From Gallionellaceae bacterium UBA2239 (GTDB taxonomy: Bacteria; Pseudomonadota; Gammaproteobacteria; Burkholderiales; UBA9220), in contig DDYH01000050.1 of assembly GCA_002347615.1 (NCBI GenBank), forward strand, positions 12,753 to 76,752: a stretch of 64,000 bases of DNA. The letters are read 5' to 3'. Shown piece by piece: positions 5,133-47,400 of this stretch. Below the pieces are notes generated by a model. It did no database searches. It saw only the letters and a list, made by a program, of their open reading frames with translations, and had not been told where the DNA came from. Position 1 is the first letter of the stretch, and each line of letters starts with the position of its first letter. Made by a program: the position numbers and the translations under genes.

Positions 5133-6509
5133 CTACCGCTCCCTCCCCGCCTCATGAAACGCCTTCCGCACCGGCGACAGCAGATATTCCAGAATGGTGC
5201 GGTCGGCCAGCTTGATCTCCGCGCTCACCGCCATGCCGGGAGACATGCGGAAGCGCTCGTGGTCCGCCTCCAGTTCCTGGCGCTTCAAGCTCACCACCGA
5301 ACGGTAGTACAGCATGCCTGCGCCTTTGGATGGGTCGGGCGGCGCGGTGTTGCCGTTGGCTTCCCCTTGCCGGTCGCTGGCGTCGGCGCTGACGAAGCTC
5401 ACCGTCCCATCCGCCATGCCATACTTTTGGAATGGGTAGGCGGCGAGCTTGACCTTCACCTCCTGCCCCTCATGGACAAAGCCCACGTCCTCGTTGGACA
5501 GCCACACTTCCGCCTGGAGGGCTTCGTTGGCGGGCACCAGGGTGAGCAGCACGGTGCCGGGGGAGACCACGGTGCCCGGGGTGCGGGTGGCGAGGTCTTT
5601 GACGAAGCCGTCCTGGGTGGCCTTGAGTTCCATCAGTTCGTTGCGATGCTGCTGCTTGGCCCACGCCTGTCTAAGCTTCTCGTACTCGGTCATGGCATCC
5701 ACCCGCTCCTTCTGCAATTGCTGGCGGTAGGAGGAGGTGATCTGGGCAAGCTTGCGCTCCGATTGGGCGATGGTGCTCTTCAGCCCTTCTATGGTGTGGG
5801 TCTGGGAGCGCAGGTCCTGTTCCTTCTCGATGCGGTCGCGCTTTTTCTCCAGCACCATGAGATTGCCGGCGAAGCCCTTGGTGCCGAGCTTCTCGAAGGC
5901 CTGTTCCTGGGCCTGGTAGACCGGCAACACCTGCTTCAGCTTGGACTCGATCTCCCGGGCGGCGGCCAGGTCCTGGCGGGCCTTGTCGAGAACCGCCCGT
6001 TCCTGGGACAGGGCGTCCTCGTAGGCGCGGCGATTGGCCTGGTACTGGCCTTCCACTTCCCGGAACAGGTCGATGGGGTCGTCCCCGGCCCGGACCAGGG
6101 CAATGTCGTCCAGCTCGGCATCGATGCGCCGCAGTTGCAGGGATTTCTGCTTCAGTTCGGCGAACAGGGCACGGGTGTCGGCCTCCGACAGACGGGTGTC
6201 CATGCGCATCAGCACCTGCCCGGCTTTGACGAACTGGTTGTCCTTCACCAGTATCTCCCGCACCATGCCCTGCTCCGAGGGCTGGATGATCTTGAGATAA
6301 GACAGGGGCACCAACTTGCCCTCCGCCACCGCCACCACGTCCACCCGCCCTAAGGTGGCCCACAGGAGCAGGAAGCCCAGCAGCGCCAGCACCGCCTTCA
6401 GCAGCTTCCGAGGAAGCGGATGGGGCGGGCTGTGCTGAAGCTTGAGGAGGCCGGGGGCGAAGTCCAGGGCCTCCACGTCGTGGTGGGTGACGAGCTTTTC
6501 TACATCCAT
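5133..6509 (-). CDS. HlyD-family type I secretion membrane fusion protein
   Basis: The ATG at 6509 is preceded by aggagg. It has one N-terminal TM helix (LLKAVLALLGFLLLWATL), a long coiled-coil region, and a C-terminal ADRTILEYLLSPV motif typical of HlyD proteins. Confidence 0.85.
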   Translation of the reverse strand: MDVEKLVTHHDVEALDFAPGLLKLQHSPPHPLPRKLLKAVLALLGFLLLWATLGRVDVVAVAEGKLVPLSYLKIIQPSEQGMVREILVKDNQFVKAGQVLMRMDTRLSEADTRALFAELKQKSLQLRRIDAELDDIALVRAGDDPIDLFREVEGQYQANRRAYEDALSQERAVLDKARQDLAAAREIESKLKQVLPVYQAQEQAFEKLGTKGFAGNLMVLEKKRDRIEKEQDLRSQTHTIEGLKSTIAQSERKLAQITSSYRQQLQKERVDAMTEYEKLRQAWAKQQHRNELMELKATQDGFVKDLATRTPGTVVSPGTVLLTLVPANEALQAEVWLSNEDVGFVHEGQEVKVKLAAYPFQKYGMADGTVSFVSADASDRQGEANGNTAPPDPSKGAGMLYYRSVVSLKRQELEADHERFRMSPGMAVSAEIKLADRTILEYLLSPVRKAFHEAGRER

Positions 6510-6545
6510 GGAACTGCCTCCTAAAGAAACTACGAGCAGCAGTAG

Positions 6546-6733
6546 GTCGGGCACATGTGCCCGACATCCCGTCAGCAGTGTTGGGCATGTATGCCCAACC
6601 TACATTTACTGCCGTAGCGCAGGCGACCTCGCCTGCATCGGGCCGCAGGCCCGCCTTTGCGAGTTATGCGGCAAGCCGCCCATCCCTGCCAACCCCGCTT
6701 CGGCGGGCAATGCAGGCGAGTCGCCTGCGCTAC
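6546..6733. repeat. Cluster of REP-like palindromes between the HlyD gene and the RTX gene
   Basis: gtcgggcacatgtgcccgac (6546-6565) and gttgggcatgtatgcccaac (6580-6599). A nested hairpin follows, with outer arms gtagcgcaggcga/tcgcctgcgctac (6614-6626 / 6721-6733) and inner arms as at 4972-5023. Confidence 0.75.
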
Positions 6734-6775: not shown

Positions 6776-9700
6776 TCACCATCCCAAGTGGGTGAAACCT
6801 TCACGCAGGCCGGTGAAGGACTGCATGCCCCCTTTGCCGCCAGCATTGGAAGGGATGGAACCATGCCCTTTTTCGGCCCCCTTGCCACCCGAGCCCAACC
6901 CATTCGCAGCCTCGGAGAAGTGGCTATGGCCCGAAGGTGCCCCCAAATCGCCGTCGAAGGCGGCGAAGTGGGCATCCAGACGGGAATGCATCCTTCCCCA
7001 CTGGGCCTGGTAAGAACGGCCGTCTTCGTCGTCGCCCAGGCCGCGAAGCTGCTTGCCGCCTTTGGTGATGTCGTCGAAGTCGCTCAGGCGGACGGTCTGG
7101 TAACGCCCGCTTTGGTCGAACCAGCGGTGGAGCAGGCCGTCAATGCGCTCTTGCACCTTGTCCTTGTCGTTCCGCTTGCCGTAGTGGTCATGGTCCCGAT
7201 CTTCGTGGCGGTCGTGGTGATTATCATGGCCGTGGCCATGACCGGAACCGTGATGTCCCGGCCAGTTACCGGAACCGCCATCATGGCCGCAGTGGTGGCC
7301 GTTGTCTTCGCCGCCCTTACCCTTTTCAAGGGTAAGCCGGAAAACGTCCGAAGCCGATGCCTGGGAGTCATCCGTGGCGGTCACCTGAACGTCGAGAGTG
7401 CCGGAGGCGTTGGCCGGAGCAGTGCCGCTGAAGGTCTGGGTAGCGGCATCGAAAACCAGCCAACTCGGCAGGGCGGAGCCATCCGCCAGGGTGGCGCTGT
7501 AGGCCAGCGCATCGCCCTGATCGACGTCGGTAAAGCTCCCCGCTGGAACCTGCCAGGTGAAGGCCGCTTTGGTCTGGGCAGTCTGGTCAGCGAGGGGCGC
7601 AACCAAGATGGGAGCGTCGTTGACGTTGGCCACCGCGAGGTCGAAGGTGTCAGAAGCGCTGGCACCACTGCCGTCGGTGGCGGTAACGGTCAAACCCAAG
7701 GAGCCGACATCCCCGTTGGCCGGTGTGCCCGTAAGAGTACGGGTAATAGGGTCGAAGGTCAGCCAGTCGGGCAACGGCAGGCCGTCGGCCAGGGTGACGC
7801 CGAACTGGAGCGTATCGCCAAGGTCCACGTCGGCGAAGGCGCTGTCCGGCAGGGCATAGCTGAAAGGCGCGTCTTCAGTCGCCGTCTGGTCGGGAATCGG
7901 TTCCGCAACCAGGGGCGCATCGTTGACGTTGGCGACGCCGAGAGCGAACACCTGGGAGGCGGATGCCCCGGCGAGGTCGGTGGCGGTTACCTTGATATTC
8001 AAGGTGCCCACGTCGCCGTTTGCCGGCATGCCGGCAAAGGTGCGAGTGGCCCCGTCGAAACTGAGCCAAGCCGGCAGGGGATCGCCATTTTCCAGGGTGG
8101 CGGCGTAACTCAGGGCGTCGCCGACGTCCATATCCGCAAAGGCGCTTTCCGGCAAGGTGTAGGCAAAGGCGGCGTCTTCGCTAGCAGTCTGCGAGGCAAG
8201 GGGCTCCACCGCATAGGGGGCGTCGTTGACGTTGAGGACGTCGAGGGCAAACACCTGGGAGGCCGAAGCGCCGGCCGCGTCGATGGCGGTCACCATGAGT
8301 TGCAGGCTACCCACGTCTTCGTTGGCCGGAATCCCGCTCAGTGTGCGAGTGGCGGCATCGAAGGCGAGCCAGGCCGGCAGAGGTGTGCCGTCAGCCAAGG
8401 TAAGGCCGAAACTAAGGCTGTCGCCCTGGTCGATGTCGGCAAAGGCATCCGCCGGCAGGGTGAAGCTGAACAGCGCGTCTTCCGGCGCCGCCTGCTGGCC
8501 CACCGGAACGGCGGCGACCGGGGCGTCGTTGACATTGGCGACGCCGAGGGCAAACGCCGCTACCGTGCTCGCCCCTGCCAAATCGGTGGCCGTGACGGCC
8601 ACGCCGATATTTCCCACGTCGCCGTTGGCGGGGGTGCCGGCGAAGGTCAGCGTAGCCGGATCGAAGGTCAGCCAGGCCGGCAAGGGCGTACCATCGGCCA
8701 AGGCGGCGCTGTAGGAGAGCGTTTCGCCTGCATCAATGTCGGCGAAAGTTCCCGTCGGCACAGTGAAGACAAAGGACAAGTCTTCGGTGGCTGCTTGGTT
8801 GTCGATGGGGGTCACCGTGGCGGGAGCGTCGTTGACGTTGACCACCGTGAGGTCGAACAACTGCGTCGCCGCCATGCCCGCCCCATCGGTGGCAATGACC
8901 TGGACACCCCAAACGCCTACGTCGCCATTCGCCGGCGTGCCGGCGAAGGTACGGTTGACGGCATCGAAGCTGAGCCATGACGGCAGCGGATCACCGTTTT
9001 GGAGGGTGGCCGCAAAGCTAAGCGTATCGCCGGCATCGACGTCGGAAAAGGCGCCGTCGGGCAGCGCGTAGGTGAAAGGCGCATCCTCGGCAGCCGTTTG
9101 TGCGTCAATCGGAATGGCCGCAACAGGGGCATCGTTGACGTTGGCAACGGCCAGGTCGAAGGTGTCGGAAACCGCTTCCCCCGCCGGGTCGATGGCGGTC
9201 ACCGTCACGCTCAGGGTGCCCACGTCGCCGTCGCCCGGCGTGCCGCTGAAGGTGCCGGTGGAGGAGTCAAAAGCCAGCCAGCCGGGCAGCGGCGAGCCAT
9301 CAACAAGCGTGGCGGTGTAGCTCAGCACGTCGCCGGCGTCCGGGTCGATGAAGGTGCCGGCAGGAATCTGGTAGAGGAAGGCCGCATCCTCGTCCGCCGA
9401 CACATCCGGCAAGGCGCCCACCAGTTCCGGCGCACGGTTCAGGAAGTCGGTGATAGACACCTCGCTACCATCGGCAAAGCCCACCGTCGCAGTCACCAAT
9501 GAACCGGTAGCGCCCGTGGGGTCGAATCCTTCCAGGACCACGGCGTCGCCGGTGCTGCCGACTTGAAGGGTGAGCTTGCCGCTTTCCAGAACCGGCGTAA
9601 GGTCGGCCAGGGTAATCCCAGCGCCGAACTGGATGCGATTGCCGCCGGAGGCGTCAGCAATGTCGCGGATAATGTCGATGCCGTCACCCAGGTTGAAGAG

Positions 9701-16499: not shown

Positions 16500-18829
16500 G
16501 CCGCCCTCCTCCATGCCATGTCGTTACTTGCGCCACCCACCATCGGCATCGGGTTGCGGTTTTCAATCGGGCTGAAGTAGCGGTCGAAGGGGTTGCCGTA
16601 ATCGGCGGCGCTCCAGTCGAAGCCGGTGGCGGTGTAGTCGTCGTCGCCGTCGATGACGTCGTCGCCCGCTCCGCCCGCGAGGATGTCTTGCCCCTCCCCG
16701 CCGAAGAGGACGTCGTTGCTTGTTCCGCCCACGACGATGTCGTCGCCGGCGCCGCCGTTGAGCCAGTCGCCCTTCTGGCCGGTGCCGCCTTGGAGGTTGC
16801 CTTGGGTGATGGCGGTGGAGAGGTCAATTTCCGTGTCGGCGTAGAGGCGGTCGTTGCCTGCGCCGCCGTAGAGGATGTCGCTTCCTTCACCCCCTTCAAG
16901 AAGGTCGTTGCCCCCTCGGGTGGCGAGGAGCATGTCGTTGCCGCCCAGCCCTTGGACAAGGTCGTTGCCTTCGCCGTCGTAGAGCGTATCGTCACGGCCG
17001 GCTTCCTCGGTGCCGTCGGTGATGACGTTGTCCAGGTCGTCGGTGCGGTAGTCCTGGTTGGGCGGGTCGAAGTCGAGGGGGTGGAGGTCGCCGATAATGG
17101 TGCGGTCTACGGGAGCAGCATCCTCCGTGGCCAGATACAGGCCAAGGTCACCATCCTCGAAATTCTCGATGACGACGCGGGTTCCATCCGCCAAGGTCAA
17201 CGTGAGGTTGGCGTCTTTGGCAACGCTGATCGAGCGATCAGAAAGAAAAACATAATTTCCGGAAGCGTCCTTTTCGATGACACCGGAGATGACACGGCCT
17301 GTTTTGTCTTGGATGCGCCCCTGGCCGTCAGCGTCTTTTATCGTGTCGTAGCCCTCGATGATGTAGACGTCACTGCCAGCACCGCCGTCCAGAACATCGT
17401 CCCCTGCGCCGCCAACAAGCAGATCATTACCGCCGCCGCTGGATAAGGAATCGTTTCCCGATCCTCCAAGCATCAGGTCCTTCTTGTCGTCCTCCGTCGC
17501 CGTGGCAATCAAATTTCCTTCCGTAGCAAGCGAATAGCGGTCTACATTGCCATGGAAGGATATGGATAGTTCGTCATGGGCCTTGCGCAGTTCGCTATCC
17601 AGTTGCGCGAAGCTCTTTGCCACCCATTGGTCGTCTTCCGATTTGTGCTCGATCTGGACGCCGCCGCTCAGTGGCTTGAAGGCCGGGTCGAACGTGCCGG
17701 ATGCGATTCCATTCACGTGGTCCAACCCTTGCGCGTAGTGGAGATTGATGTCGAGGTCCACCAGCGCGGCTTTCAATGCGTCTGTGGCAAGCTCACCCTG
17801 AATGCGCCCGATGTCGCCTGCGAAGGCTTCCAGGGGGTTTTCGCCAGCCGTCTGCAGTTGGACCATGAGGTTGAGGAAGTTGATCTCAGCTTTACTAGGC
17901 GCTGTATTCCGCTCGGAGGTGAATATCTTTTGCAACACTTCCGGGTTGTTCTGGCTGGCGGCCAGGAATTCCGGCGATTGGAGAAACGCAGCCAGCAAGG
18001 GCATGTAGTGCAGGTCAACCGGGTCGCCGTTCAGGAGTGAATAGCCCCAGTCGTTGCCGGTGGTCGCTTTGGCATCGATTGCCTGTTCGTTGCCGGCGAT
18101 GTTGGTAACGTTGGCCGCGAGGAGGAGAATTGCGGGGTTGGAGAACAGGCCGAGCGCTACGGCGGCAATGCGCCCGGCGGGGGTTTGCGCCAGGGAGAGG
18201 ATTTCATCCTTGACGTAGATGGCGCTGACGTTTCCTTCGCGGGCGACGCGGGTGGGGCTGGGGAGGAGGGTGCCGGTCAGAGGGTCAACAGCGATATAGC
18301 CGGCAAAGGCGTCCGGCAAGGAGTAGCCTGCCGCTACAAGGGCCGCCTTGAGGCCGTTGACCACAATGGAGGAATCTGCCGATTTCTCGAAGGGCGCTTC
18401 GTCGAATACCTGTGCCGGCCGGTCAAAGTACACCGCCATCAGGGAAGCCAGGCCCCCACCCAGCGAGTGGCCGGTGAAGGTGATGGTCGCGCCGGGGTTG
18501 GCTTGGGCCACGTCCAGATAAAACTTGGCGGCATCGAGTACCTGAGGGGCAAGGGTCAGTCCGCTGCCTGCCGTGATGTTACCCGCCAGCCAATCTTTGG
18601 CTTTATCGAGCGATCCACCCTCGAAGGTGGTGCCGGTGTAGGCGATGGCAATCTCGCCGGTTTGAGTGTTTTGGTAGGCACGGGCGGTGAAGCCAGTGGC
18701 ATCGTTAATTCGATCGTCGAGTTTTACCCAGCCATCGGGGATTGGAATAGTGTTCTTATCACTGGTCACATCACGCTTTACCGCATAAGAATTGGCCGCC
18801 AGCAATGCATATTCAACATTAGTCGTCAT
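16496..18829 (-). CDS. Truncated RTX protein (777 aa) with an N-terminal alpha/beta-hydrolase lipase-like domain; orphan head cassette
   Basis: Nucleophile elbow FTGHSLGGGLASL in a class-3-lipase-like context. RTX nonapeptides are present (GGSGNDSLSSGGGNDLLVGGAGDDVLDGGAGSD). The protein then runs through the shared segment and ends ...NPMPMVGGASNDMAWRRAA-stop, at the point where the full-length paralogue continues VGGADILYGG... Confidence 0.85.
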   Translation of the reverse strand: MTTNVEYALLAANSYAVKRDVTSDKNTIPIPDGWVKLDDRINDATGFTARAYQNTQTGEIAIAYTGTTFEGGSLDKAKDWLAGNITAGSGLTLAPQVLDAAKFYLDVAQANPGATITFTGHSLGGGLASLMAVYFDRPAQVFDEAPFEKSADSSIVVNGLKAALVAAGYSLPDAFAGYIAVDPLTGTLLPSPTRVAREGNVSAIYVKDEILSLAQTPAGRIAAVALGLFSNPAILLLAANVTNIAGNEQAIDAKATTGNDWGYSLLNGDPVDLHYMPLLAAFLQSPEFLAASQNNPEVLQKIFTSERNTAPSKAEINFLNLMVQLQTAGENPLEAFAGDIGRIQGELATDALKAALVDLDINLHYAQGLDHVNGIASGTFDPAFKPLSGGVQIEHKSEDDQWVAKSFAQLDSELRKAHDELSISFHGNVDRYSLATEGNLIATATEDDKKDLMLGGSGNDSLSSGGGNDLLVGGAGDDVLDGGAGSDVYIIEGYDTIKDADGQGRIQDKTGRVISGVIEKDASGNYVFLSDRSISVAKDANLTLTLADGTRVVIENFEDGDLGLYLATEDAAPVDRTIIGDLHPLDFDPPNQDYRTDDLDNVITDGTEEAGRDDTLYDGEGNDLVQGLGGNDMLLATRGGNDLLEGGEGSDILYGGAGNDRLYADTEIDLSTAITQGNLQGGTGQKGDWLNGGAGDDIVVGGTSNDVLFGGEGQDILAGGAGDDVIDGDDDYTATGFDWSAADYGNPFDRYFSPIENRNPMPMVGGASNDMAWRRAA
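16530..17107 (-). repeat. Shared RTX segment, copy B (3' end of the lipase stub)
   Basis: See copy A. The identical out-of-frame ORF prefixes in the six-frame track (13914 and 16653) confirm the 2739-nt offset. Confidence 0.9.
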
Positions 18830-19788: not shown

Positions 19789-20019
19789 ATGCCGCGTGTA
19801 AAGACTTTCTCAAGTTTCGCCCTCTGGTTGTATGCCAAGGAACGGCATCGCTTACCCCATGTCCATATCGAGGCGCCAGGCTTGCGCGCCACGCTGGCTA
19901 TCGAGACAGGCAAGGTGATGGTGGGTTTTGCCCCGGATGACCTGGTGCGCGAGGCACGGGCATACATTGCGGAAAATCGCGCCGCGCTGCTCGAAAAATG
20001 GAAGGAGTTGAACCCGTGA
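19789..20019 (+). CDS. DUF4160-family small protein
   Basis: 76 aa. The segment WLYAKERHRLPHVHIEAPG is the motif typical of DUF4160 (HxxPHxH). Confidence 0.65.
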   Translation: MPRVKTFSSFALWLYAKERHRLPHVHIEAPGLRATLAIETGKVMVGFAPDDLVREARAYIAENRAALLEKWKELNP

Positions 20020-20462
20020 ACAAGCCTGTTCTGATTACCGCCGTCGCCGCCGTTGAGTCTGGCGTCCTTGAGATTACCTTTGACGGCAAGAAGTCGTTTC
20101 GCGTCGATTTGCGGCGTGATATTGCCGACTACCCTGTCCTTGCTCCGCTTTCCGATCCCGCTTTGTTCGGCACTGTCCATGCGGATGAATTCGGCCATGC
20201 CGTGCGCTGGAACGATGACATTGATCTGGGCGCCGACGGGCTCTGGATGGAGGCCCATGTCCAGGCCGGGCTGGCGGTACGCTTTGAGGAGTTCGATGCC
20301 TGGCGCAAGCGAAACGGCCTGTCCCTGACGGATATTGCCAACATTCTTGGAGTCAGCCGCCGCACGGCGACAAATTATGCCGGGGGCTTTCATTTGATCC
20401 CGAAAATCGTCGGCTTGGCTATGGTCGGGTGGGAAACTCTCAAGGCCCGCAAGGCTGCCTAA
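19998..20462 (+). CDS. DUF2442-like protein with a C-terminal helix-turn-helix
   Basis: ITAVAAVESGVLEITFDGKKSFRVDL is DUF2442-like. The C-terminal LSLTDIANILGVSRRTATNYAGG is HTH-like. The real start may be the GTG at 20015, which overlaps the upstream stop (GTGA). Confidence 0.6.
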   Translation: MEGVEPVNKPVLITAVAAVESGVLEITFDGKKSFRVDLRRDIADYPVLAPLSDPALFGTVHADEFGHAVRWNDDIDLGADGLWMEAHVQAGLAVRFEEFDAWRKRNGLSLTDIANILGVSRRTATNYAGGFHLIPKIVGLAMVGWETLKARKAA

Positions 20463-20497: not shown

Positions 20498-22852
20498 TCA
20501 TTTTTCTTCCTCCTCCGGCGCATCGCTTTTCGTCTCCCCCTTCCCCCCCAACATCACCACCTCATCCACCTTCAGCCCCTTGGGCAGCTGATGGGTGATG
20601 AACAGCATCCCCACCTTGCCCCGCAGCTTGTTCACGGTCTGTGCGAAGTGTTCGGCGGTGTGCTGGTCCAGGTTGCTGGTGGCTTCGTCGAAGATGAGGA
20701 TTTTGGGTTGCTTGAGCAGGGCCCGGGCGATGGCGAGGCGCTGCTTCTGTCCGCCGGAGAGGCCGGAGCCGTGTTCGCCGATGGGGGTCTGGTAGCCCTG
20801 GGGGAGCTTGTCGATGACGTCATGGATTTCGGCCATGGAGCAGGCTTCGACGATCTGCGGGAAGCTGGCGTGGGGGTTGGCCATGAGGAGGTTGTCGTAG
20901 AGGGTGCCGGAGAAGAGGTAGGTTTCCTGGGGCACGACGCCGAAGTAGCTGCGCAGCTCGTTGGCGGCCAGGTGGCGGATGTCCCGGCCGTCGAGGAGGA
21001 TGCGGCCCTCGTTGGGGGTGTAGAAGCCTTGCAGCAGTTTGGCGAGGGTGCTCTTGCCGGAGCCTGAGGGGCCCATCATCACCACGCAGTGGCCGGGGAG
21101 GAGGTCGAGGCTTAAGTTGCGGTAGAGCCAGGGTAGGTCGTCGCCGTAGCGGAAGGAGATGCCTTCGATCTCCACCTTGCCGGCGGCGCCGGGGGCGCGG
21201 CTGGGCAGCAGGGTGTAGGGCTCGGTGGGGGCGGACATGACGTCCCCCAGGCGCTTGATGGAGATGGAGGCTTGCTGGAATTCCTGCCACAGGCCAACCA
21301 GGCGCATGACGGGGCCGGAGAGACGGCCGGAGAACATCTGGAAGGCCACCAGCATGCCGATGGTGAAGTCGGTATCGTGCATGACGATCCAGGCGCCGAC
21401 GCACAGGATGGCGAGGGTCTGTATCTGGTCCAGGGCGCTGGCGGCGGTGTTGTAGGTGTTGGACAGCTGCCGGGTGTTGAAGCCGGCGGCCAGGGCTTCG
21501 GCCAGGTAGTCGCCGTATTTGGCCTTGAGCTGGGGTTCCATCTGGAGGGATTTGACGGTCTCCATGCCTGCCACGTATTCGGTGACGAAGGCCTGGTTGC
21601 GGGCGCCCACCAGGAATTGCTTGTTGAGGCGCTCCCGGAACAGGGGCGTGACAATAAAGCTTAAGCTTGCGATGAGGACGAGAATGGCGAGGGAGATGAG
21701 AGTGAGCTTCCAGCTGTAGTAGAACATCACCGCCAGGAAGATGACCAGGAAGGGCAGGTCGAGGAGCAGGGAGACGGCGGTGCCGGTGATGAATTCGCGG
21801 ATGGTTTCCACGCCCTGGAGCCGGGCGACTACCGTGCCGGTGGGGCGGCGCTCGAAGTAGCGGGGCGGCAGGTGGACCAGGTGCTCGAAGACCTTGGTGC
21901 CGAGGACGGCGTCGATGCGGTTGCCGGTGTGGAGCACCAGGTATTGGCGCACCCAGGTCATGACGGCGGTGAACACCATGAAGGCCAGCAGGGCCAGGGC
22001 GATGACCACCAGGGTGCTTTGGGTGTGGTGGACGACGACCTTGTCGATGATTACCTGGGTGAACAGCGGCGTGGCAAGGCCCACCAGCTGGATGGCGAGG
22101 GAGGCGGCGAGGACTTCCTTCCACAGCTTCTTGTGCTTGAGGAGTTCGGGAACGAACCATTGGAAGCCGAAGGCGGCTTCGGGCTGGCCGTCTTCGTCGG
22201 GGAGGGGTTGGCCTTCCTTGGCGAAGAGGAGGGCCCAGGGTTCGAAGGCGGTTTCGAATTCTTCGGCGGTGGCGGTGCGGGGTTGTTCTTCGCCGGGGAG
22301 GAAGTAGAGGAGCTGGTCGCCTTCGGCTTTGAGGATGAGGGCGGGGCGGAGGGGTGGGGTAGGTGGTGCTGCGGTAGTTTCGTCGGATGGAGCATCGTCC
22401 GCATTTCCCTCTCCCCCTGCCCCTCCCCCGCTTGCGGGGGAGGGGAGCGAGAAGCTGTCCTCTTCTTCCACACTCCCCTCTCCCTCCGGGAGAGGGGCTG
22501 GGGGTGAGGAACAATCCTCCGGCTTGAGAAAGCCCAAGCACGGCAACGGAAAACGTTGCAAATCCCCAGCCGCAGCAGCGCGAATCCCCGAGCGCAGCTT
22601 CAGCCCCTGGGCGGCATGCTGGAGGCTGGCGAGGTGGTAAGGGGGCGGGAACTGCTGGAGCAGCAGGTTGGGGTCGAAGGGCTGGCGATGGAGCTGGCAC
22701 AGGCTGCCGAGACACCAGAGGAATGCATCCCGTTCCAAGAGCGCCGATAAATCAGCGTTCGGCCCCGGCTCTGGGACTTCACGATAGGACTCGATGTGGC
22801 GCAGGAGGGGCCGCGCCATATCAAATGCGTGTTTGTAGGCCGCGCGCAGCAC
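20498..22852 (-). CDS. Type I secretion ABC transporter (permease/ATPase) with an N-terminal C39-peptidase-like domain
   Basis: Walker A GPSGSGKST, signature LSGGQKQRLAIARAL, Walker B ILIFDEATS, and six TM helices. The N-terminal ~200 aa resemble the HlyB-type C39-like domain. The start is uncertain (M1 at 22852 or M12 at 22819). Confidence 0.9.
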   Translation of the reverse strand: MLRAAYKHAFDMARPLLRHIESYREVPEPGPNADLSALLERDAFLWCLGSLCQLHRQPFDPNLLLQQFPPPYHLASLQHAAQGLKLRSGIRAAAAGDLQRFPLPCLGFLKPEDCSSPPAPLPEGEGSVEEEDSFSLPSPASGGGAGGEGNADDAPSDETTAAPPTPPLRPALILKAEGDQLLYFLPGEEQPRTATAEEFETAFEPWALLFAKEGQPLPDEDGQPEAAFGFQWFVPELLKHKKLWKEVLAASLAIQLVGLATPLFTQVIIDKVVVHHTQSTLVVIALALLAFMVFTAVMTWVRQYLVLHTGNRIDAVLGTKVFEHLVHLPPRYFERRPTGTVVARLQGVETIREFITGTAVSLLLDLPFLVIFLAVMFYYSWKLTLISLAILVLIASLSFIVTPLFRERLNKQFLVGARNQAFVTEYVAGMETVKSLQMEPQLKAKYGDYLAEALAAGFNTRQLSNTYNTAASALDQIQTLAILCVGAWIVMHDTDFTIGMLVAFQMFSGRLSGPVMRLVGLWQEFQQASISIKRLGDVMSAPTEPYTLLPSRAPGAAGKVEIEGISFRYGDDLPWLYRNLSLDLLPGHCVVMMGPSGSGKSTLAKLLQGFYTPNEGRILLDGRDIRHLAANELRSYFGVVPQETYLFSGTLYDNLLMANPHASFPQIVEACSMAEIHDVIDKLPQGYQTPIGEHGSGLSGGQKQRLAIARALLKQPKILIFDEATSNLDQHTAEHFAQTVNKLRGKVGMLFITHQLPKGLKVDEVVMLGGKGETKSDAPEEEEK
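22420..22497. repeat. Two REP-like palindromes lying in frame inside the ABC transporter gene
   Basis: cccctcccccg-cttg-cgggggagggg (22420-22445) and cccctctccc-tcc-gggagagggg (22475-22497). They encode ...PLPEGEGSVEEEDSFSLPSPASGGGAGGEG... Confidence 0.8.
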
Positions 22853-23144
22853 GGCCAGGAGGCGCCCTCCTCCGTCTAGGACTTTTTTACCACGCCCATC
22901 TCCAAAAGCTTGTGATTATGGGAAACGGTCCGGTGGCCGCTTCTTCCATTTGTTTTCTTATGCTCTGCCCTGCCGGCAGCTTCTATGGCGCCGTGTCATG
23001 ACATCGTTATATCAATGCCTCGTCATATTTGGCACGAATATACCACTACGACGTCATGGATAAAGTCCGTACTTTTACGTACGGAGGGGTCAAGGGAGAA
23101 GCGGAGATGGGGGGATGACCGGAGGATTTTCAATCCAACCCAAG

Positions 23145-23416
23145 CCGCCGCCTCGTCGGAGCAGTCGGCGGGCATCGAGCAGGTGAACCAGGCCATCACC
23201 CAGATGGACGAGATCACCCAGCAGAACGCCGCCCTGGTGGAACAGGCGGCGGCGGCCGCCGAATCCATGCAGGGACAGGCAGAGCAGCTGGCCCGTGCGG
23301 TGGCCGTGTTCAAGCTGGACCGCGCCTCCGCCGTCACCGTGCCGAAAATATCCGCGGCCAGAAAGCGGCTCCATGTGGTGGGCGGCAGCGACGAGGAGGA
23401 GTGGGAGGCGTTCTGA
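23145..23416 (+). pseudogene. Orphan 3' fragment of the MCP gene (direct repeat copy 2); right boundary of the island
   Basis: Encodes [34 protein letters not shown]...[11 protein letters not shown]-stop, i.e. the last ~90 codons of the gene at 1933-4938. The upstream in-frame sequence is unrelated. Confidence 0.9.
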
Positions 23417-27921: not shown

Positions 27922-27959
27922 GATGTTCTCCTAGTTACGAAATTCCTTGGCTGCCCCCT

Positions 27960-28048
27960 CCTTCCCCCTTGAAGGGGGAAGGTTGGGATGGGGGTGATGG
28001 ATGCGCCGCGACACCCCCACCCTAACCCTCCCCCTTCAAGGGGGAGGG
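27960..28048. repeat. Pair of REP-like palindromes in the narJ-narI spacer
   Basis: ccttcccccttgaagggggaagg (27960-27982) and ccctcccccttcaagggggaggg (28026-28048). Confidence 0.8.
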
Positions 28049-28081
28049 AATTTCCGGGCTCGGCTTGCCTATTTCCTGAAT

Positions 28082-35800: not shown

Positions 35801-35853
35801 GATTTGTGTCCTCCTGTTGCAGTCAATAAACATCGCGCAGCGATTCTTCGTCC

Positions 35854-35916
35854 CCCTCTCCCGTCCCGACGTGGTCACCGCGAAGCGGCGGGTGCCCCGT
35901 CGAGGACGGGAGAGGG
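35854..35916. repeat. REP-like hairpin in the narK-narK spacer
   Basis: ccctctcccgtcc (35854-35866) pairs with ggacgggagaggg (35904-35916). Confidence 0.75.
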
Positions 35917-35933
35917 CAGAGGTGAGGGAAACG

Positions 35934-44145: not shown

Positions 44146-44196
44146 CCCACCCCACTCCCCTCCCCCGCAGGCGGGGAGGGGATGGGGGAGAGGGAA

Positions 44197-44231
44197 AATA
44201 AAAAAGCGCAGCCGAGGCTGCGATTTTTTGT
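44197..44231. terminator. Bidirectional rho-independent terminator between the cytochrome gene and valS
   Basis: The stem gcgcagcc/ggctgcg is flanked by an A-run (aaaataaaaaa) and a T-run (attttttg). Confidence 0.75.
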
Positions 44232-44249
44232 TGCCTTTCCCTCACCCCT

Positions 44250-44355
44250 GCCCTCTCCCGCACCCGAAAGGGGTGTTCTCGCCGGGTACCCGCCGCGTTG
44301 CGGCGACCACGGCGGAACGGGAGAGGGGGACTTTGGCTCGCTTCGCGAGTTTCGT
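44250..44355 (+). repeat. 106-nt structured repeat, copy 1 (downstream of valS)
   Basis: gccctctcccgcacccgaaaggggtgttctcgccgggtacccgccgcgttgcggcgaccacggcggaacgggagaggggg... aligns with 47295-47400 in the same orientation. The outer inverted repeat is ccctctcccg/cgggagaggg. Confidence 0.8.
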
Positions 44356-44365
44356 TTAACCCGGC

Positions 44366-47143
44366 TTACTTCAGCTTGTCGAACTGGGCCTGGAGCTTCT
44401 CCAGGGTGGCGCCGAAGTTGGCCAGGCGTTCTTTCTCCTGGGCCACCACCGCGGCGGGGGCACGCTCGACGAAGGAGGCGTTGGACAGCTTGGCTTCCGC
44501 TTTGCCGATTTCTCCCTTGAGGCGCTCGATCTCCTTGGACAGGCGGGCCAGTTCGGCCTCCTTGTCGATCTCCACCTGGAGCATGAGGCGGAAGTCGCCC
44601 ACCACCTGCACCGGGGCGTCGGCGTCGGGCAACTCGCCTGCGGCGGCGGTCACTTCGGACAGCTTCACCAGGGCCTTGAGGTAGGGGCCGAAAGCTTCCA
44701 CCGTGGCCTTGTCCCCGAGCACCACCAGGGGCACCCGCTGGGCGGGGGAAAGGTTCATTTCCCCCCGCAGGGTGCGGCAGGCGTTGACCATTTCCTTCAG
44801 CAGGGCGAGGCGGGCTTCGGCGTCCTTGTCCACCTTGGCCGGGTCGGCCTCGGGGAAGGGAGACAGCATGATGGACCCGCTGGACATGCCGGCCAGGGGC
44901 GCCACTTTCTGCCACAGCTCCTCGGTGATGAAGGGGATCAGCGGGTGGGCCAGGCGCAGGATGGCGCCCAGCACCCGCACCAGGGTGCGGCGGGTGGCCC
45001 GCTGCTGGGCCTCGTTGCCTTCGTTGAGGCGGACCTTGGCCAGCTCCAGGTACCAGTCGCAGTACTCGTCCCAGATGAATTCGTACACCGCCCGGGCCAC
45101 CATGTCGAAGCGGTAGGCCTTGAAGGCTTCTTCCACTTCCATCTCCGCCTGCTGCAGGCGGCTGATGATCCAGCGGTCCACCTCGGAATACTCAAGGTAG
45201 CCCTCTCCCCCCTCCCCTCCCCCGCCTGCGGGGGAGGGGAGGTCCAGGCCCACGTCCTTGCCTTCGCAGTTCATCAGCACGAAACGGCTGGCGTTCCACA
45301 GCTTGTTGCAGAAGTTGCGGTAGCCCTCGGAGCGCTGGATGTCGAACTTGATGTCCCGGCCGTGGGTGGCGAGGCTGGCGAAGGTGAATCTAATCGCATC
45401 GGTGCCGAAGGCGGGGAAACCATTGGGGTAGTCGGCGCGGGTCAGCTTGGCGATACTTTCCGCCTGCTTGGGGTTCATCAGGCCGGTGGTGCGCTTGGCG
45501 ATGAGCTCGTCCAGGGTGATGCCGTCGATCAGGTCGATGGGGTCGATGATGTTGCCCTTGGATTTCGACATCTTGTTGCCGTGGGCATCCCGCACCAGGC
45601 CGGTGACGTAGACTTCGCGGAAGGGCACCTTGCCGGTGAAGTGCAGGGACATCATCACCATGCGGGCGACCCAGAAGAAAATGATGTCGAAGCCGGTGAC
45701 CAGCACGCTGGTGGGCAGGTACCTGTCCAGCTCGGGGGTCTTGTCCGGCCAGCCCAGGGTGGAGAAGGGCCACAGGGCGGAGGAGAACCAGGTGTCGAGG
45801 ACGTCCTCGTCCTGGCTCAACTTGGCATTGGGGCCGGCCTTGGCCTGGGCTTCTTCGGCGGTGTGGGCGACGTAGACGTTGCCGTCCTCGTCATACCACG
45901 CCGGGATGCGGTGGCCCCACCACAGTTGGCGGGAGATGCACCAGTCCTGGATGTTTTCCAGCCACTGGTTGTAGGTGCTGGTCCAGTTCTCGGGGACGAA
46001 CTTGATGTCGCCCTTGGCCACGGCATCCAGGCCGGCCTTGGCCATGCCTTCCATGGCCACGTACCACTGGTCGGTGAGCATGGGCTCGATCACCACGTGG
46101 GTGCGGTCGCCCCGGGGCACCATCAGCTTGTGGGGCTTGGTGTCCACCAGCAGGCCCTGGGCGTCCAGTTCGGCCACCAGCTTCTTGCGCGCATCAAAGC
46201 GGTCCAGGCCCTGGTATTCGGCGGGGCCGAAGTCGTTGATGCGGGCGTCCAGGGTGAAGATGTTGATGGGCTCCAGCTTGTGGCGCTGGCCCACCTGGTA
46301 GTCGTTGAAGTCGTGGGCCGGGGTGATCTTGACGCAGCCGGTGCCGAACTCGGGATCGACATAATCGTCGGCGATGATGGGGATGGTGCGCTCGGCGATG
46401 GGCAGGCGCACGTGCTGGCCGATGAGGTGCTTGTAGCGCTCGTCCTCGGGGTGGACCGCCACGGCCACGTCGCCCAGGAGGGTCTCGGGGCGGGTGGTGG
46501 CGACGATCAGGGCGCCCTCGCCTTCTTCCAGCGGGTAGCGGATGTGCCACATGAAGCCGTCTTCTTCCTCGGAGACCACCTCCAGGTCGGAGACGGCGGT
46601 TTGCAGCACCGGGTCCCAGTTCACCAGGCGCTTGCCGCGGTAGATCAGGCCCTCGTTGTAGAGGCGCACGAAGACTTCGGTGACGGCGCGGGACAGGCCC
46701 TCGTCCATGGTGAAGCGCTCCCGGGACCAGTCCGGGGAGGTGCCCAGGCGGCGCATCTGGCGGGTGATGGTGCTGCCGGATTGCTCCTTCCACTCCCACA
46801 CCTTTTCCACGAAGGCTTCCCGGCCCAGGTCGTGGCGGGAAATCTTCTTCGCGTCCAGCTGGCGCTCCACCACGATCTGGGTGGCGATGCCGGCGTGGTC
46901 GGTGCCCGGCTGCCACAGGGTGTTGAGGCCCTTCATGCGGTGGTAGCGGACCAGGGCGTCCATCAGGGTGTGCTGGAAGGCGTGCCCCATGTGCAGGGTG
47001 CCGGTGACGTTGGGGGGCGGCAGCATGATGCAGTAGGCGTCGCGGCCGGGCGTGTTGCCCGCGGCGAAGTAGCCGCTTTCTTCCCAATGCTGGTACCAGC
47101 GTTGTTCGATGTCGCGGGGCTCGAAGCTTTTGGCGAGTTCCAT
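44366..47143 (-). CDS. valS: Valine--tRNA ligase
   Basis: Starts [21 protein letters not shown] at 47143. HIGH-type motif [18 protein letters not shown] motif, and a C-terminal coiled coil. Confidence 0.95.
45200..45241. repeat. REP-like palindrome lying in frame inside valS
   Basis: cccctcccccg-cctg-cgggggagggg (45214-45239). The 42-nt stretch encodes [14 protein letters not shown], between the conserved NKLWNASRF and DRWI motifs. Confidence 0.8.
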
Positions 47144-47294
47144 GGTATATCCGGTATCGTCGGCGAAACCCGGCATTATAACCGAACGATCATGGCGAGT
47201 CGCCGCCCCGGTAATAAGGCAGCAATTCGCCATGATCGTTTGCGAGGTGGGCGGTGTGCCGCCCATCCCTGCCCACTTCCTATCCCCCACCCCA

Positions 47295-47400
47295 GCCCTC
47301 TCCCGCGCCCACAGGGGGTGTTCTCGCCGGGTACCCGCCGCTTGGCGGCGACCTCGGCGGAACGGGCGAGGGAGACGCTGTGTCGCTGCGCGACTTTCGT
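47295..47400 (+). repeat. 106-nt structured repeat, copy 2 (upstream of valS)
   Basis: See 44250-44355. Confidence 0.8.

Follow-up and report, generated by a model that had tools for sequence, protein, structure and literature searches.

The stretch of DNA analysed here, called the window throughout, is 64,000 nt long and contains the gene of a T1SS ABC transporter whose N-terminal domain carries palindromic repeats in frame. This gene, its relevant parts and the other genes of its locus are the following.

5133-6554: HlyD (HlyD_3), membrane-fusion protein of the transporter's locus
6776-15775: RTX/He_PIG giant protein of the same locus
16496-18829: RTX lipase of the same locus
20498-22852, minus strand: HlyB-type T1SS ABC transporter gene, host of the repeats (784 aa ORF)
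22217-22741, minus strand: N-terminal C39-like domain, residues about 38-212, split by the loop (AF2, Foldseek, Pfam)
22364-22513, minus strand: disordered hypervariable hairpin loop, residues 114-163, with a variable region of about 110-167 (AF2, homologue alignment)

From their sequence, the ABC transmembrane and ATPase domains are assignable to the HlyB subfamily. Pfam ABC_membrane covers residues 249-515 and ABC_tran residues 578-726, the top PDB matches are the HlyB structures 7sgr/8dck (3.5e-137), and the top NCBIfam match is TIGR01846 type_I_sec_HlyB, with 598 bits, that is, below the cut-off of 725. The gene is associated genomically with a membrane-fusion protein and RTX substrates. 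The original prediction had placed the repeats in a C39-like domain. At the sequence level this assignment is weak: the Pfam search of the intact N-domain gave no C39 match reaching threshold, and positions 11-131 (of 133) of the Peptidase_C39 profile matched it weakly, only with the loop deleted (E = 0.04, 14 bits compared to a cut-off of 22). A phmmer search of the N-domain against the PDB found 0 chains. The structural comparison was more favorable, since Foldseek aligned the transporter with full-length HlyB over 731 columns; outside the loop, the AF2 pLDDT of the C39-like domain is 75-89.

The segment bearing the repeats is predicted to be disordered in the model (residues 114-163, pLDDT below 50, no secondary structure), between two strands of the folded domain (E105-109 and E168-177), in agreement with the surface loop that had been expected. 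The flanking strands FPLPCLGFLK and PALILKAEGDQLLYF, which had been designated as conserved, are indeed so in the homologue alignment. A further expectation, that the extra ~40 aa would be lineage-specific, holds for the repeat-derived content and not for the loop itself, which is present in all orthologues and varies in sequence and in length (in 40 homologues, from about 5 to about 60 aa). The loop sequence of the window was found in no orthologue outside the lineage of at least 91% identity. Given this hypervariability in every orthologue, an already permissive linker would have received the repeats or been overwritten by them. No orthologue of the ABC gene with an empty site was found, the next relatives being at most 70% identical with unrelated loops. 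Consequently, we infer the 'insertion' in this gene, and the repeats may have overwritten the linker there rather than added length.

An inverted doublet of repeat units in the transporter

Two palindromes had been noticed inside the ORF and both were recovered, one with a perfect stem of 12 bp and a 2-nt loop (22420-22445), the other with a perfect stem of 10 bp and a 3-nt loop (22475-22497). Neither pattern arises in 100 dinucleotide-preserving shuffles of the window. The translation, ...PPAPLPEGEGSVEEEDSFSLPSPASGGGAGGEGNADDAPSDE..., is exactly as had been quoted. The repeat unit turned out to be more than a palindrome: it consists of a C-box, a loop, a G-box, 2 nt and a second G-box. Two such units of different types face each other in the transporter.

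22402-22517, minus strand: whole inverted doublet, one long hairpin of 116 nt (RNA folding)
22407-22447, minus strand: element A (type 1), 41 nt, CTCCCCTCCCCC-GCAAGC-GGGGGAGGGG-CA-GGGGGAGAGGG
22448-22472, minus strand: spacer between the inverted units, 25 nt, encoding VEEEDSFS, at the tip of the long hairpin
22473-22509, plus strand: element B (type 2), 37 nt, CTCCCCTCTCCC-TCC-GGGAGAGGGG-CT-GGGGGTGAGG

Element A is sense to the transporter, begins in codon phase 0 (Leu136) and encodes LPSPASGGGAGGEG; element B is antisense and is read as SPPAPLPEGEG. The predicted RNA hairpin of the doublet has an MFE of -81.8 kcal/mol (z = -5.86), and 0 of 200 shuffles fold as well. The repeat units contain no stop codon in any frame, and the doublet is read in the transporter as a Pro/Ser/Gly/Glu-rich peptide.

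The two close relatives, L001 and L002, have continuous transporter ORFs across the doublet, as does the window, and both have kept element B. The second unit lies at identical boundaries in the three genomes; it is of type 1 in the window and of type 2 in L002, and is decayed in L001. The gene call of the transporter in L002 starts at an internal ATG located within the repeat.

We infer that the repeat peptide is translated and that it is neutral; its predicted disorder and the conservation of the flanks point to a neutral surface appendage. For the transporter itself the effect is likely to be small, namely the lengthening of a flexible loop in the domain that docks the substrate.

Other copies in the window

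The family is represented elsewhere in the window by the copies listed below, together with its second host gene. Element C was not part of the original prediction.

27960-28048: intergenic inverted doublet of a third subtype (27960-27997, plus strand; 28014-28048, minus strand)
35852-35925, plus strand: long-loop variant of type 2, with C-box, G-box and second G-box as in element B and a loop insert of ~45 nt
44155-44194, plus strand: element D (type 1), in intergenic DNA, with the cytochrome c' stop codon on one side and a terminator-like hairpin on the other
44239-44327, minus strand: long-loop variant, 89 nt, just downstream of the ValRS gene
44366-47143, minus strand: valyl-tRNA synthetase (ValRS) gene (NCBIfam NF004349, 1315 bits)
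45201-45241, minus strand: element C (type 1), in frame in the ValRS gene
47284-47372, minus strand: slightly degenerate 89-nt long-loop variant, just upstream of the ValRS gene

Element A is identical to element D at 37 of 41 nt and to element C at 38 of 41 nt; mutually, units A, C and D share 37 to 39 of 41 nt. The two palindromes of the transporter had been assigned to the families of the intergenic repeats 44157-44181 and 35854-35916. This relationship stands with a refinement, since the latter repeat is a long-loop variant, which has the stems and the trailing G-box in common with element B. The intergenic doublet forms a predicted DNA hairpin (27955-28050) with an MFE of -38.6 kcal/mol (z = -7.6). 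Overall, three of the nine window copies are intragenic, and all three are in frame.

The high G+C content of the window (63%), the low complexity of the loop and the metagenome-type assemblies could suggest a chance resemblance of G/C-rich coding sequence, or an artefact of assembly or sequencing. This explanation is effectively refuted by the zero matches expected from shuffles, by the identity among copies, by the presence of the doublet in three independent assemblies, and by the exact occurrence of the core in more than 100 genomes, cultured isolates included.

Filled and empty sites in the ValRS gene

Element C has the orientation and the reading frame of element A, begins in codon phase 0 (Leu635) and encodes 14 residues, which correspond to a gap in the solved ValRS structures 4xkz and 1gax. 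This site (site 1) is filled in the window. The orthologues in two related genomes, L114 and L115, are 93% and 91% identical and lack element C; they therefore represent empty sites. L114 is syntenic with the window, with about 81-91% nucleotide identity over three aligned blocks (90.7% over ValRS), and lacks all four elements that surround and interrupt ValRS in the window. At a second site, a different copy is present in the close relative L115, and the site is empty in the window and L114. Filled and empty sites thus occur in genomes that are more than 90% identical, and copies appear to be gained and lost among these.

Clean insertion junctions were sought at ValRS sites in two clades and were not found, target bases being replaced instead. 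At site 1, 11 nt of the target are replaced, for a net gain of 33 nt, and neighbouring codons differ at both sites. Because of the replaced bases, an independent insertion in the Thiobacillus-type clade is inseparable from one insertion followed by 5' deletions.

As judged from these sequences, the junctions could result from repair or conversion no less readily than from transposition. It could be envisaged that the transporter had always possessed a long low-complexity linker, into which repeat sequence was copied from elsewhere in the genome by ectopic gene conversion, or by template switching at a stalled fork, and that no transposition took place. The ValRS junctions would fit, as they replace target bases with no target-site duplication, and both ValRS target sites share GAGAG/GAGGG microhomology with the end of the second G-box; the Thiobacillus-type empty site lacks this microhomology, however. 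In the transporter, the loop is long and variable in repeat-free orthologues as well, and the change of second-unit subtype between the window and L002 keeps the exact boundaries and involves paired stem changes. TMECO sites, which are compared with the family below, are hot spots of small rearrangements with no link to transposons (Holder et al. 2015, PMC4666352). Yet the de novo arrival of repeats at two ValRS sites devoid of prior repeat homology exceeds homologous conversion, and inverted doublets and hairpin-plus-tail units look like substrates of HUH enzymes. We consider such an overwriting rather doubtful as the explanation, if far from negligible.

Distribution of the family across genomes

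Species-representative genomes contain the exact 28-nt core of the repeat in at least 111 stretches, mostly from Betaproteobacteria. Cultured isolates with the exact core include Ferriphaselus sp. R-1 and Thiobacillus denitrificans RG. Of the exact-core copies, 89 are followed by the second G-box, and the modal length is 41 nt. A phage origin was rejected, as only a single match was obtained among 2.9 million viral contigs.

The proportion of exact copies lying in frame within genes was 44 out of 108 testable copies (about 40%), as called by a period-3 GC test of the flanks, which was verified by Pfam and by random positions. ORF length, also considered as an intragenic criterion, was dropped, since shadow ORFs on the antisense strand distort it when the DNA is rich in GC. 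Among additional family members in the flanks, 22 of 67 were in frame. Pfam matches were found for 19 of the 20 host ORFs examined, which include IleRS, CysRS, Mfd, MetH, Tex and HsdR. Besides ValRS in the window, the family thus lies in frame in dozens of conserved genes from related bacteria. The proportion of about 40% in frame in conserved, often essential genes is almost that expected from random placement.

In-frame copies are strongly biased. The frame LPSPA[SG]GGGxGGEG is used by 36 of 44 (p = 4e-21), a bias that may be inflated because the search seed, with its 5' CT, was derived from in-frame copies. Forty of the 44 are sense to the host gene, and the two Arg-rich frames were used by 0 of 66 in-frame copies. 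The encoded peptide therefore appears, from these sequences, to bear a strong signature of selection. Together with the ValRS loop, which was struck in at least three clades, the bias toward one frame and the sense orientation could be taken to mean that LPSPASGGGAGGEG-type peptides are protein modules, selected as functional linkers or motifs, and that intergenic copies are coding relics. This is very improbable: the DNA of the unit is perfectly palindromic and bears a conserved tail of non-coding type, copies of the family are found between genes, in either orientation and in four of the six frames, and identity at the nucleotide level spans unrelated host genes, synonymous positions included. 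Moreover, the host proteins are functionally unrelated, the nearest relatives are devoid of the peptide, and the peptide is predicted to be disordered.

Target sites were also compared. No target-site duplication was found in 79 of 89 copies, the remainder having 2-3 nt, and a weak preference for T was observed at positions -3 and -2.

A possible history of the repeats

We conclude, with a probability of about 0.82, that the transporter segment consists of two inverted units of a dispersed repeat of non-coding type, which lies in a permissive loop and would have spread by copying. The original prediction of a dispersed palindromic element tolerated in frame in a loop is supported by the empty ValRS sites, by the 44 of 108 in-frame copies and by the disorder of the loop.

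The following scenario may be proposed. The family would spread inside genomes through a copying process without target-site duplication. A single-stranded hairpin would be mobilised by an enzyme of the HUH/Y1 type, as is the case for REP/REPIN and IS200/IS605; mobilisation in trans by such an enzyme, which is suggested by analogy, is our preferred guess, held at about even odds. No Y1/RAYT gene was detected in the 64-kb window by tblastn with the Y1_Tnp protein of L002, and among 113 loci this protein matched only L002 itself, with a weak match in L056. The Y1_Tnp gene of L002 adjoins a transporter remnant and is not flanked by the repeats. Copies would afterwards be homogenised or swapped through ectopic gene conversion, and genic copies would persist only in permissive loops and in frames giving flexible uncharged peptides. 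Finally, the hairpin- or triplex-forming DNA may destabilise its site, and such instability would account for the three versions of the second unit in three genomes that are at least 90% identical.

Palindromic repeats in frame are already known, as RPE and as GTAG/CGTC REPs; the behaviour is unreported for this repeat family. A full-text literature search returned reports on the triplex motif, on GTAG/CGTC REPs and on RPE, and no description of in-frame copies of this family. Whether the BoxC/triplex-type repeat is a coding-tolerant, perhaps even coding-adapted, selfish element across free-living Betaproteobacteria (Thiobacillus, Sulfuricellaceae, Gallionellaceae, Hydrogenophilales) seems to us an evenly balanced matter. 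If so, this would be the first evidence for mobility of BoxC/PIT, and an RPE-like phenomenon would extend beyond obligate intracellular bacteria, at a much larger taxonomic scale. The filled and empty pairs offer concrete, datable insertion events for studying junctions, targets and rates. The 14-residue Gly/Pro-rich inserts flag permissive loops in essential enzymes (ValRS, IleRS, CysRS, Mfd, MetH), and the repeats can misdirect gene callers, as with the transporter start in L002.

Comparison with known systems

The host transporter resembles HlyB in its full-length alignment with the HlyB structures and in its neighbouring HlyD and RTX proteins. With respect to the CLD of HlyB, the loop bearing the repeats is the turn that joins two strands after the helical half of the domain. 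In E. coli HlyB this turn is presumably short, whereas in the present protein family it is expanded and hypervariable (5-60 aa).

The family shares with REP/REPIN elements the short G/C-rich hairpins, often arranged as inverted dimers able to form one longer hairpin, and the absence of target-site duplication. Such folding was predicted here for the doublet of the ABC gene (z = -5.9) and for 27955-28050 (z = -7.6). REPINs and RAYT transposases were reportedly treated by Bertels and Rainey in 2011. The label 'REP-like' that had been given to the palindromes was nevertheless not borne out as regards GTAG/CGTC REP identity, the repeats being BoxC/PIT/triplex-motif-like: no consistent GTAG (GT[AG]G) or CGTC tag flanks units A to D, the additional G-box tail is no REP feature, and the sequence, instead of being species-specific, is nearly the same from one order to another. 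For GTAG/CGTC REPs, intragenic, codogenic copies have been described from Opitutus, Thauera, Thioalkalivibrio and Rickettsia, and many of these copies lie in genes of DNA repair (Di Nocera et al. 2013, PMC3733652).

The analogy to Rickettsia palindromic elements gains weight from the in-frame copies in many genes. Like the repeats found here, RPEs are palindromes in frame in many unrelated, often essential genes, with a preferred reading frame, fold-compatible sites (surface loops) and presence/absence polymorphism among relatives (Ogata et al. 2000, 2002, via PMC10969869 and PMC3733652). What both have in common is therefore the presence of in-frame copies in many unrelated protein-coding genes, at sites where the structure is permissive. 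Size, composition and host set them apart: RPEs are about 100-150 bp long, AT-rich and limited to obligate intracellular Rickettsia, whereas the units described here are 37-41 nt long, G/C-rich and triple-boxed, encode a disordered Gly/Pro/Ser peptide, and reside in free-living sulfur/iron-oxidising Betaproteobacteria.

The BoxC/PIT/TMECO motifs have been known since the 1990s. BoxC and PIT elements are reportedly due to Bachellier, in the 1990s, and to Hoyne et al., in 2000, and to our knowledge neither the mobility mechanism nor the function of these motifs has ever been established. They are the closest described relative of the family. Both have a C-rich box, a short loop, a complementary G-box, a short loop and a mirror-like second G-box, and the box sequences, CCCTCTCCC / GGGAGAGGG / GGGTGAGGG, are nearly those of the units here. 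Likewise shared are the many dispersed copies, the frequent inverted pairs of two subtypes, and the link with local rearrangement. The units have the TMECO hairpin, that is, a C-rich and a complementary G-rich box separated by a 3-6-nt loop. A triplex would be allowed as well, with the second G-box in mirror register: by a sequence rule, allowed purine-motif triads (G.G:C, A.A:T, T.A:T) amount to 9/10 for A, 9/9 for B, 9/10 for C, 8/9 for D and 10/10 for the L002 allele. The strict TMECO pattern, CCCTCNCCC-N3-6-GGGNGAGGG-N3-GGGNGAGGG, had no match in the window, because the stems, at 10-11 nt, exceed those of the pattern by 1-2 nt and the second loop has only 2 nt; the type 1 stems (CCCCTCCCCC/GGGGGAGGGG) represent a distinct subtype. 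Table S1 of the TMECO paper reports 25 copies in Sulfuricella denitrificans, and the E. coli triplex motif is described as exclusively intergenic (Holder et al. 2015, PMC4666352). In contrast to the latter, 3 of the 9 copies in the window, and about 40% of those in related genomes, lie in frame within genes.

Repeat units in the window

The original prediction placed two REP-like palindromes in frame within the C39-like domain of a T1SS ABC transporter. Both are present, at 22420-22445 (perfect 12-bp stem, 2-nt loop) and 22475-22497 (perfect 10-bp stem, 3-nt loop); neither pattern was seen in 100 shuffles, and the translation across them is as originally quoted. A second G-rich box follows each palindrome after 2 nt. 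Besides these two units, designated A and B, six further units were found in the window, counting an inverted doublet as one.

Repeat units of the window, by position
22407-22447 (-): unit A, type 1, in the transporter gene, CTCCCCTCCCCC-GCAAGC-GGGGGAGGGG-CA-GGGGGAGAGGG
22473-22509 (+): unit B, type 2, in the transporter gene, CTCCCCTCTCCC-TCC-GGGAGAGGGG-CT-GGGGGTGAGG
27960-28048: inverted doublet of a third subtype, intergenic
35852-35925 (+): long-loop variant of type 2 (for all three such variants, 45-59-nt loop insert)
44155-44194: unit D, type 1, intergenic
44239-44327 (-): long-loop variant of type 2
45201-45241 (-): unit C, type 1, inside valyl-tRNA synthetase (ValRS, 44366-47143)
47284-47372 (-): long-loop variant of type 2

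Unit A is in sense orientation to the transporter gene, begins in codon phase 0 and encodes LPSPASGGGAGGEG, while unit B is antisense and read as SPPAPLPEGEG. The two are inverted, 25 nt apart, and the region containing them is computed to fold into one hairpin (-81.8 kcal/mol, z = -5.9). Units A, C and D agree pairwise at 37-39 of 41 positions, A and B at 32 of 41. Unit C, a third in-frame unit missing from the original inventory, matches unit A in orientation and codon phase; no intragenic copy beyond A, B and C was found in the window.

The insert of the long-loop variants is a REP-like hairpin itself (CGCCGC-aac-GCGGCG, flanked by GTTC...GAAC), inverted relative to the stems of the unit in 35852-35925; these variants look like one repeat nested inside another. 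Two of the long-loop copies, each of 89 nt, form direct repeats on either side of ValRS, separated by about 3 kb. Because four G-runs separated by 1-2-nt loops lie in the 3' half of the type-1 units A, C and D (GGGGGAGGGGCAGGGGGAGAGGG; for example 22407-22429, -), this half has predicted G-quadruplex potential, and could form a quadruplex competing with the hairpin or triplex.

A hypervariable loop in the transporter

The label 'T1SS ABC transporter' is sound, because Pfam, NCBIfam and HlyB matches agree with the neighboring HlyD and RTX genes, which lie on the same strand of this 63% G+C window.

Transporter gene and neighboring secretion genes
5133-6554 (transporter's strand): HlyD membrane-fusion gene
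6776-15775 (transporter's strand): RTX/Ig-domain protein, 2999 aa
16496-18829 (transporter's strand): RTX lipase
20498-22852 (-): T1SS ABC transporter ORF, 784 aa

The transporter contains ABC_membrane (residues 249-515) and ABC_tran (578-726) domains; in NCBIfam, TIGR01846 (type I secretion HlyB) scores best, at 598 bits and thus under its cut-off of 725, and the closest solved structures are those of HlyB (7sgr/8dck, E = 3.5e-137). For the C39-like domain, the sequence signal is weak: with the loop excised, Peptidase_C39 matches over profile positions 11-131 of 133 (E = 0.04, 14 bits), and with the loop retained over positions 11-81 only. An AlphaFold2 model (39 sequences) has a folded N-domain (pLDDT 75-89), and the Foldseek alignment of this model with full-length HlyB over 731 columns gives the assignment some support.

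Several features of the surroundings were also recorded. A DUF2442-family ORF on the opposite strand (19998-20462, +), possibly a small toxin-antitoxin-type insertion, abuts the transporter stop codon and splits the transporter from the remaining T1SS operon. A 143-aa ORF just upstream of the transporter (22985-23416, +) is probably a gene remnant; its translation, read by eye, looks like a methyl-accepting chemotaxis protein reduced to the C-terminal signalling end. About 70 nt, gacgacatcgtcgtgggcggaacaagcaacgacgtcctcttcggcGGGGAGGGGcaagacatcctcgcgggcgg (13952-13960 and 16691-16699, -; about 45 nt of context each), are identical between the genes of the giant RTX protein and the RTX lipase, two substrates that appear to share a recently exchanged RTX-repeat segment.

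An alignment was made of the N-terminal 300 residues of the 40 best homologues. The segment between FPLPCLGFLK and ALILKAEGD turned out to be hypervariable in every sequence, its length ranging from some 5 residues (Sulfuricella, Burkholderiales MAGs) up to some 60, and is mostly acidic and of low complexity. Contrary to what had been proposed, the extra length is therefore not lineage-specific per se. The repeat-derived DNA is: it was found only in the window and in two relatives, P0001 (locus L001, 92% aa identity) and P0004 (locus L002, 91%), the next homologues being at most 70% identical. As for the proposed loop between conserved strands, residues 114-163 were modelled with pLDDT below 50 and devoid of secondary structure, between strands 105-109 and 168-177.

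Unit B is common to the window, L001 and L002. The second unit has identical boundaries in all three, but is of type 1 in the window, of type 2 in L002 (both arms being identical 35-mers), and a decayed remnant devoid of C-box in L001. These alleles amount to turnover within 8-10% protein divergence, which fits the instability reported around the intrastrand-triplex motif BoxC/TMECO (Holder et al. 2015, PMC4666352). No empty site was present among the orthologues examined. In the transporter, the repeats are an ordinary decoration of a permissive loop, and a probably neutral one.

In L002 (11575-12567), the transporter ORF departs from the homologous frame after ...ILFSGT and stops early, the transporter call (598 aa) starts at an ATG within the repeat loop, and a 237-aa Y1_Tnp gene (IS200/RAYT-like, HUH motif HVHLL) follows the remnant. 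This arrangement suggests that the locus is rearranged or inactivated in L002.

Filled and empty sites in ValRS

The insert-free form of ValRS site 1, GKDVGLDESLPLEHS[EV/DI]DRW, is found in the closest two orthologous proteins, P0121 (93% identical) and P0201 (91%), and in 105 of 120 homologues. In the DNA, 11 nt of the relatives' loci L114 and L115 correspond to 44 nt of the window (the 41-nt unit plus CTA), a net gain of 33 nt; relative to solved ValRS 4xkz and 1gax, the unit C segment is a pure insertion between two helices. At site 2, L115, which derives from the metagenome that also yielded L002, is filled by a different unit (...LAKVQLT-SPLPQAGEGQGER-ERIEAQQ...), while the window and L114 are empty.

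Unit at ValRS site 2
L115 1666-1704: in-frame unit, CCCCTCTCCC-GCAGGC-GGGAGAGGG-ACA-GGGGGAGAGGG, read SPLPQAGEGQGER

L114 is syntenic with the window over ValRS and both flanks (about 81-91% nucleotide identity in three blocks, 90.7% across ValRS), and has none of the four units around or within the window ValRS. Between ValRS and cytochrome c' (window 44147-44363, L114 4804-5215), L114 carries a DUF1622 gene where the window has 216 nt with unit D, a terminator-like hairpin and a long-loop unit. On the upstream side of ValRS, L114 has a spacer of 12 nt, and the window 227 nt with a repeat. Differences in gene content therefore coincide exactly with the repeats. Taken together, the ValRS empty sites, the L114 synteny and the transporter turnover support the view that the units are added DNA rather than native coding sequence.

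An insert in the loop that holds unit C was found in 13 of 121 ValRS sequences, in at least three clades. Outside the loop, the nearest insert-free relative of the window ValRS is 96% identical, the nearest insert-bearing one 79%. In a Thiobacillus-type clade, insert-bearing sequences are interleaved with insert-free ones at 90-95%, and three filled alleles have a common 3' junction but different 5' junctions; a single gain followed by deletions may explain this clade. In the third clade, the insert is type-2-derived (LPSP[ST]GRGxGGEG).

Distribution and reading-frame bias

A scan of GTDB species representatives with the exact 28-nt type-1 core matched at least 111 stretches. The matches listed came mostly from Thiobacillus, Sulfuricella/Sulfuricellaceae, Gallionellaceae, Hydrogenophilales, Nitrosomonadales and Tepidiphilus, with few elsewhere, and included the cultured isolates Ferriphaselus sp. 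R-1 and Thiobacillus denitrificans RG. Among 2.9 million viral contigs, there was one match.

Because ORFs that are long but spurious abound in DNA of high G+C, location in genes was assessed by the period-3 G+C pattern over 360 nt per side. A copy counted as intragenic if its two flanks were coding in one common frame and strand and this frame stayed open across the unit. By this test, 44 of 108 testable exact copies, and 22 of 67 unseeded family members in the flanks, lie in frame inside genes. Random positions at the same loci passed the same-frame test in 46% of cases, and the family therefore shows little depletion from coding DNA. Of 20 host ORFs scanned, 19 gave clear Pfam domains, which often extend across the unit; families included N6_Mtase, IleRS (twice), MmeI (twice), PEP synthase, Mfd, HsdR, Tex, phosphoglucomutase, HrpA-like helicase, Radical_SAM_N, MetH, molybdopterin oxidoreductase, amine oxidase and CysRS.

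The unit is free of stop codons in all six frames. The frame LPSPA[SG]GGGxGGEG was used in 36 of the 44 in-frame exact copies (binomial p = 4e-21 against 1/6), a dominance that may be inflated because the search seed, including its 5' CT, was derived from in-frame copies; the unseeded in-frame set covers four frames. Exact in-frame copies were sense to the host gene in 40 of 44 cases, and the two Arg-rich frames (one being PLPRKRGRGRGRG) were used by none of the 66 in-frame copies, seeded and unseeded. Such a frame and strand bias is what translation, then purifying selection, would produce. The G-rich half lies on the coding (non-template) strand in 40 of the 44.

How copies may arise

Target-site duplication was absent in 79 of 89 copies, flanks showed a weak preference for T at positions -3 and -2, and a few target bases were replaced at the ValRS junctions. 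These features fit mobilisation of the IS200/IS605-RAYT type, in which the hairpin directs the movement of a single strand, and they are at least equally compatible with template switching or ectopic conversion. We favor, with a probability of about one half, such mobilisation acting in trans and followed by conversion; pure templated repair is a possible source of copies, although we lean against it. No Y1 transposase gene was found in the window, and the Y1_Tnp gene of L002 has no flanking repeats.

Comparison with known repeat families

The original observation is confirmed, and its reading as a tolerated in-frame palindromic repeat is supported by the ValRS empty sites and the in-frame copies elsewhere; corrections concern the family label, the loop (not lineage-specific), the transporter gene (no empty site among orthologues) and the weak C39 sequence signal. 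As for the label 'REP-like', the units lack the GTAG/CGTC tags of the REP superfamilies; in architecture and in the sequences of their boxes, they correspond to the BoxC/PIT/TMECO intrastrand-triplex motifs. By sequence rule, they satisfy the purine-motif triad at 8/9 to 10/10 positions; they depart from the strict published pattern, CCCTCNCCC-N3-6-GGGNGAGGG-N3-GGGNGAGGG (PMC4666352), because of their longer stems and shorter loop 2. That study counted 3610 copies in 262 proteobacterial genomes, and gives 25 copies for Sulfuricella denitrificans (Table S1). In E. coli, it described the motif as "always located intergenically" and not associated with transposons, with inverted A+B pairs and linked local instability (PMC4666352).

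In-frame palindromic repeats as such are already known, from the Rickettsia palindromic elements (PMC10969869 and PMC3733652) and from codogenic GTAG/CGTC REPs in Opitutus, Thauera and Thioalkalivibrio (PMC3733652). For the BoxC/triplex family, our full-text literature search found no report of in-frame copies. The broader interest is that in-frame copies of a supposedly intergenic family are now found in essential genes of many Betaproteobacteria, a pattern that comes with apparent frame selection and recent turnover.
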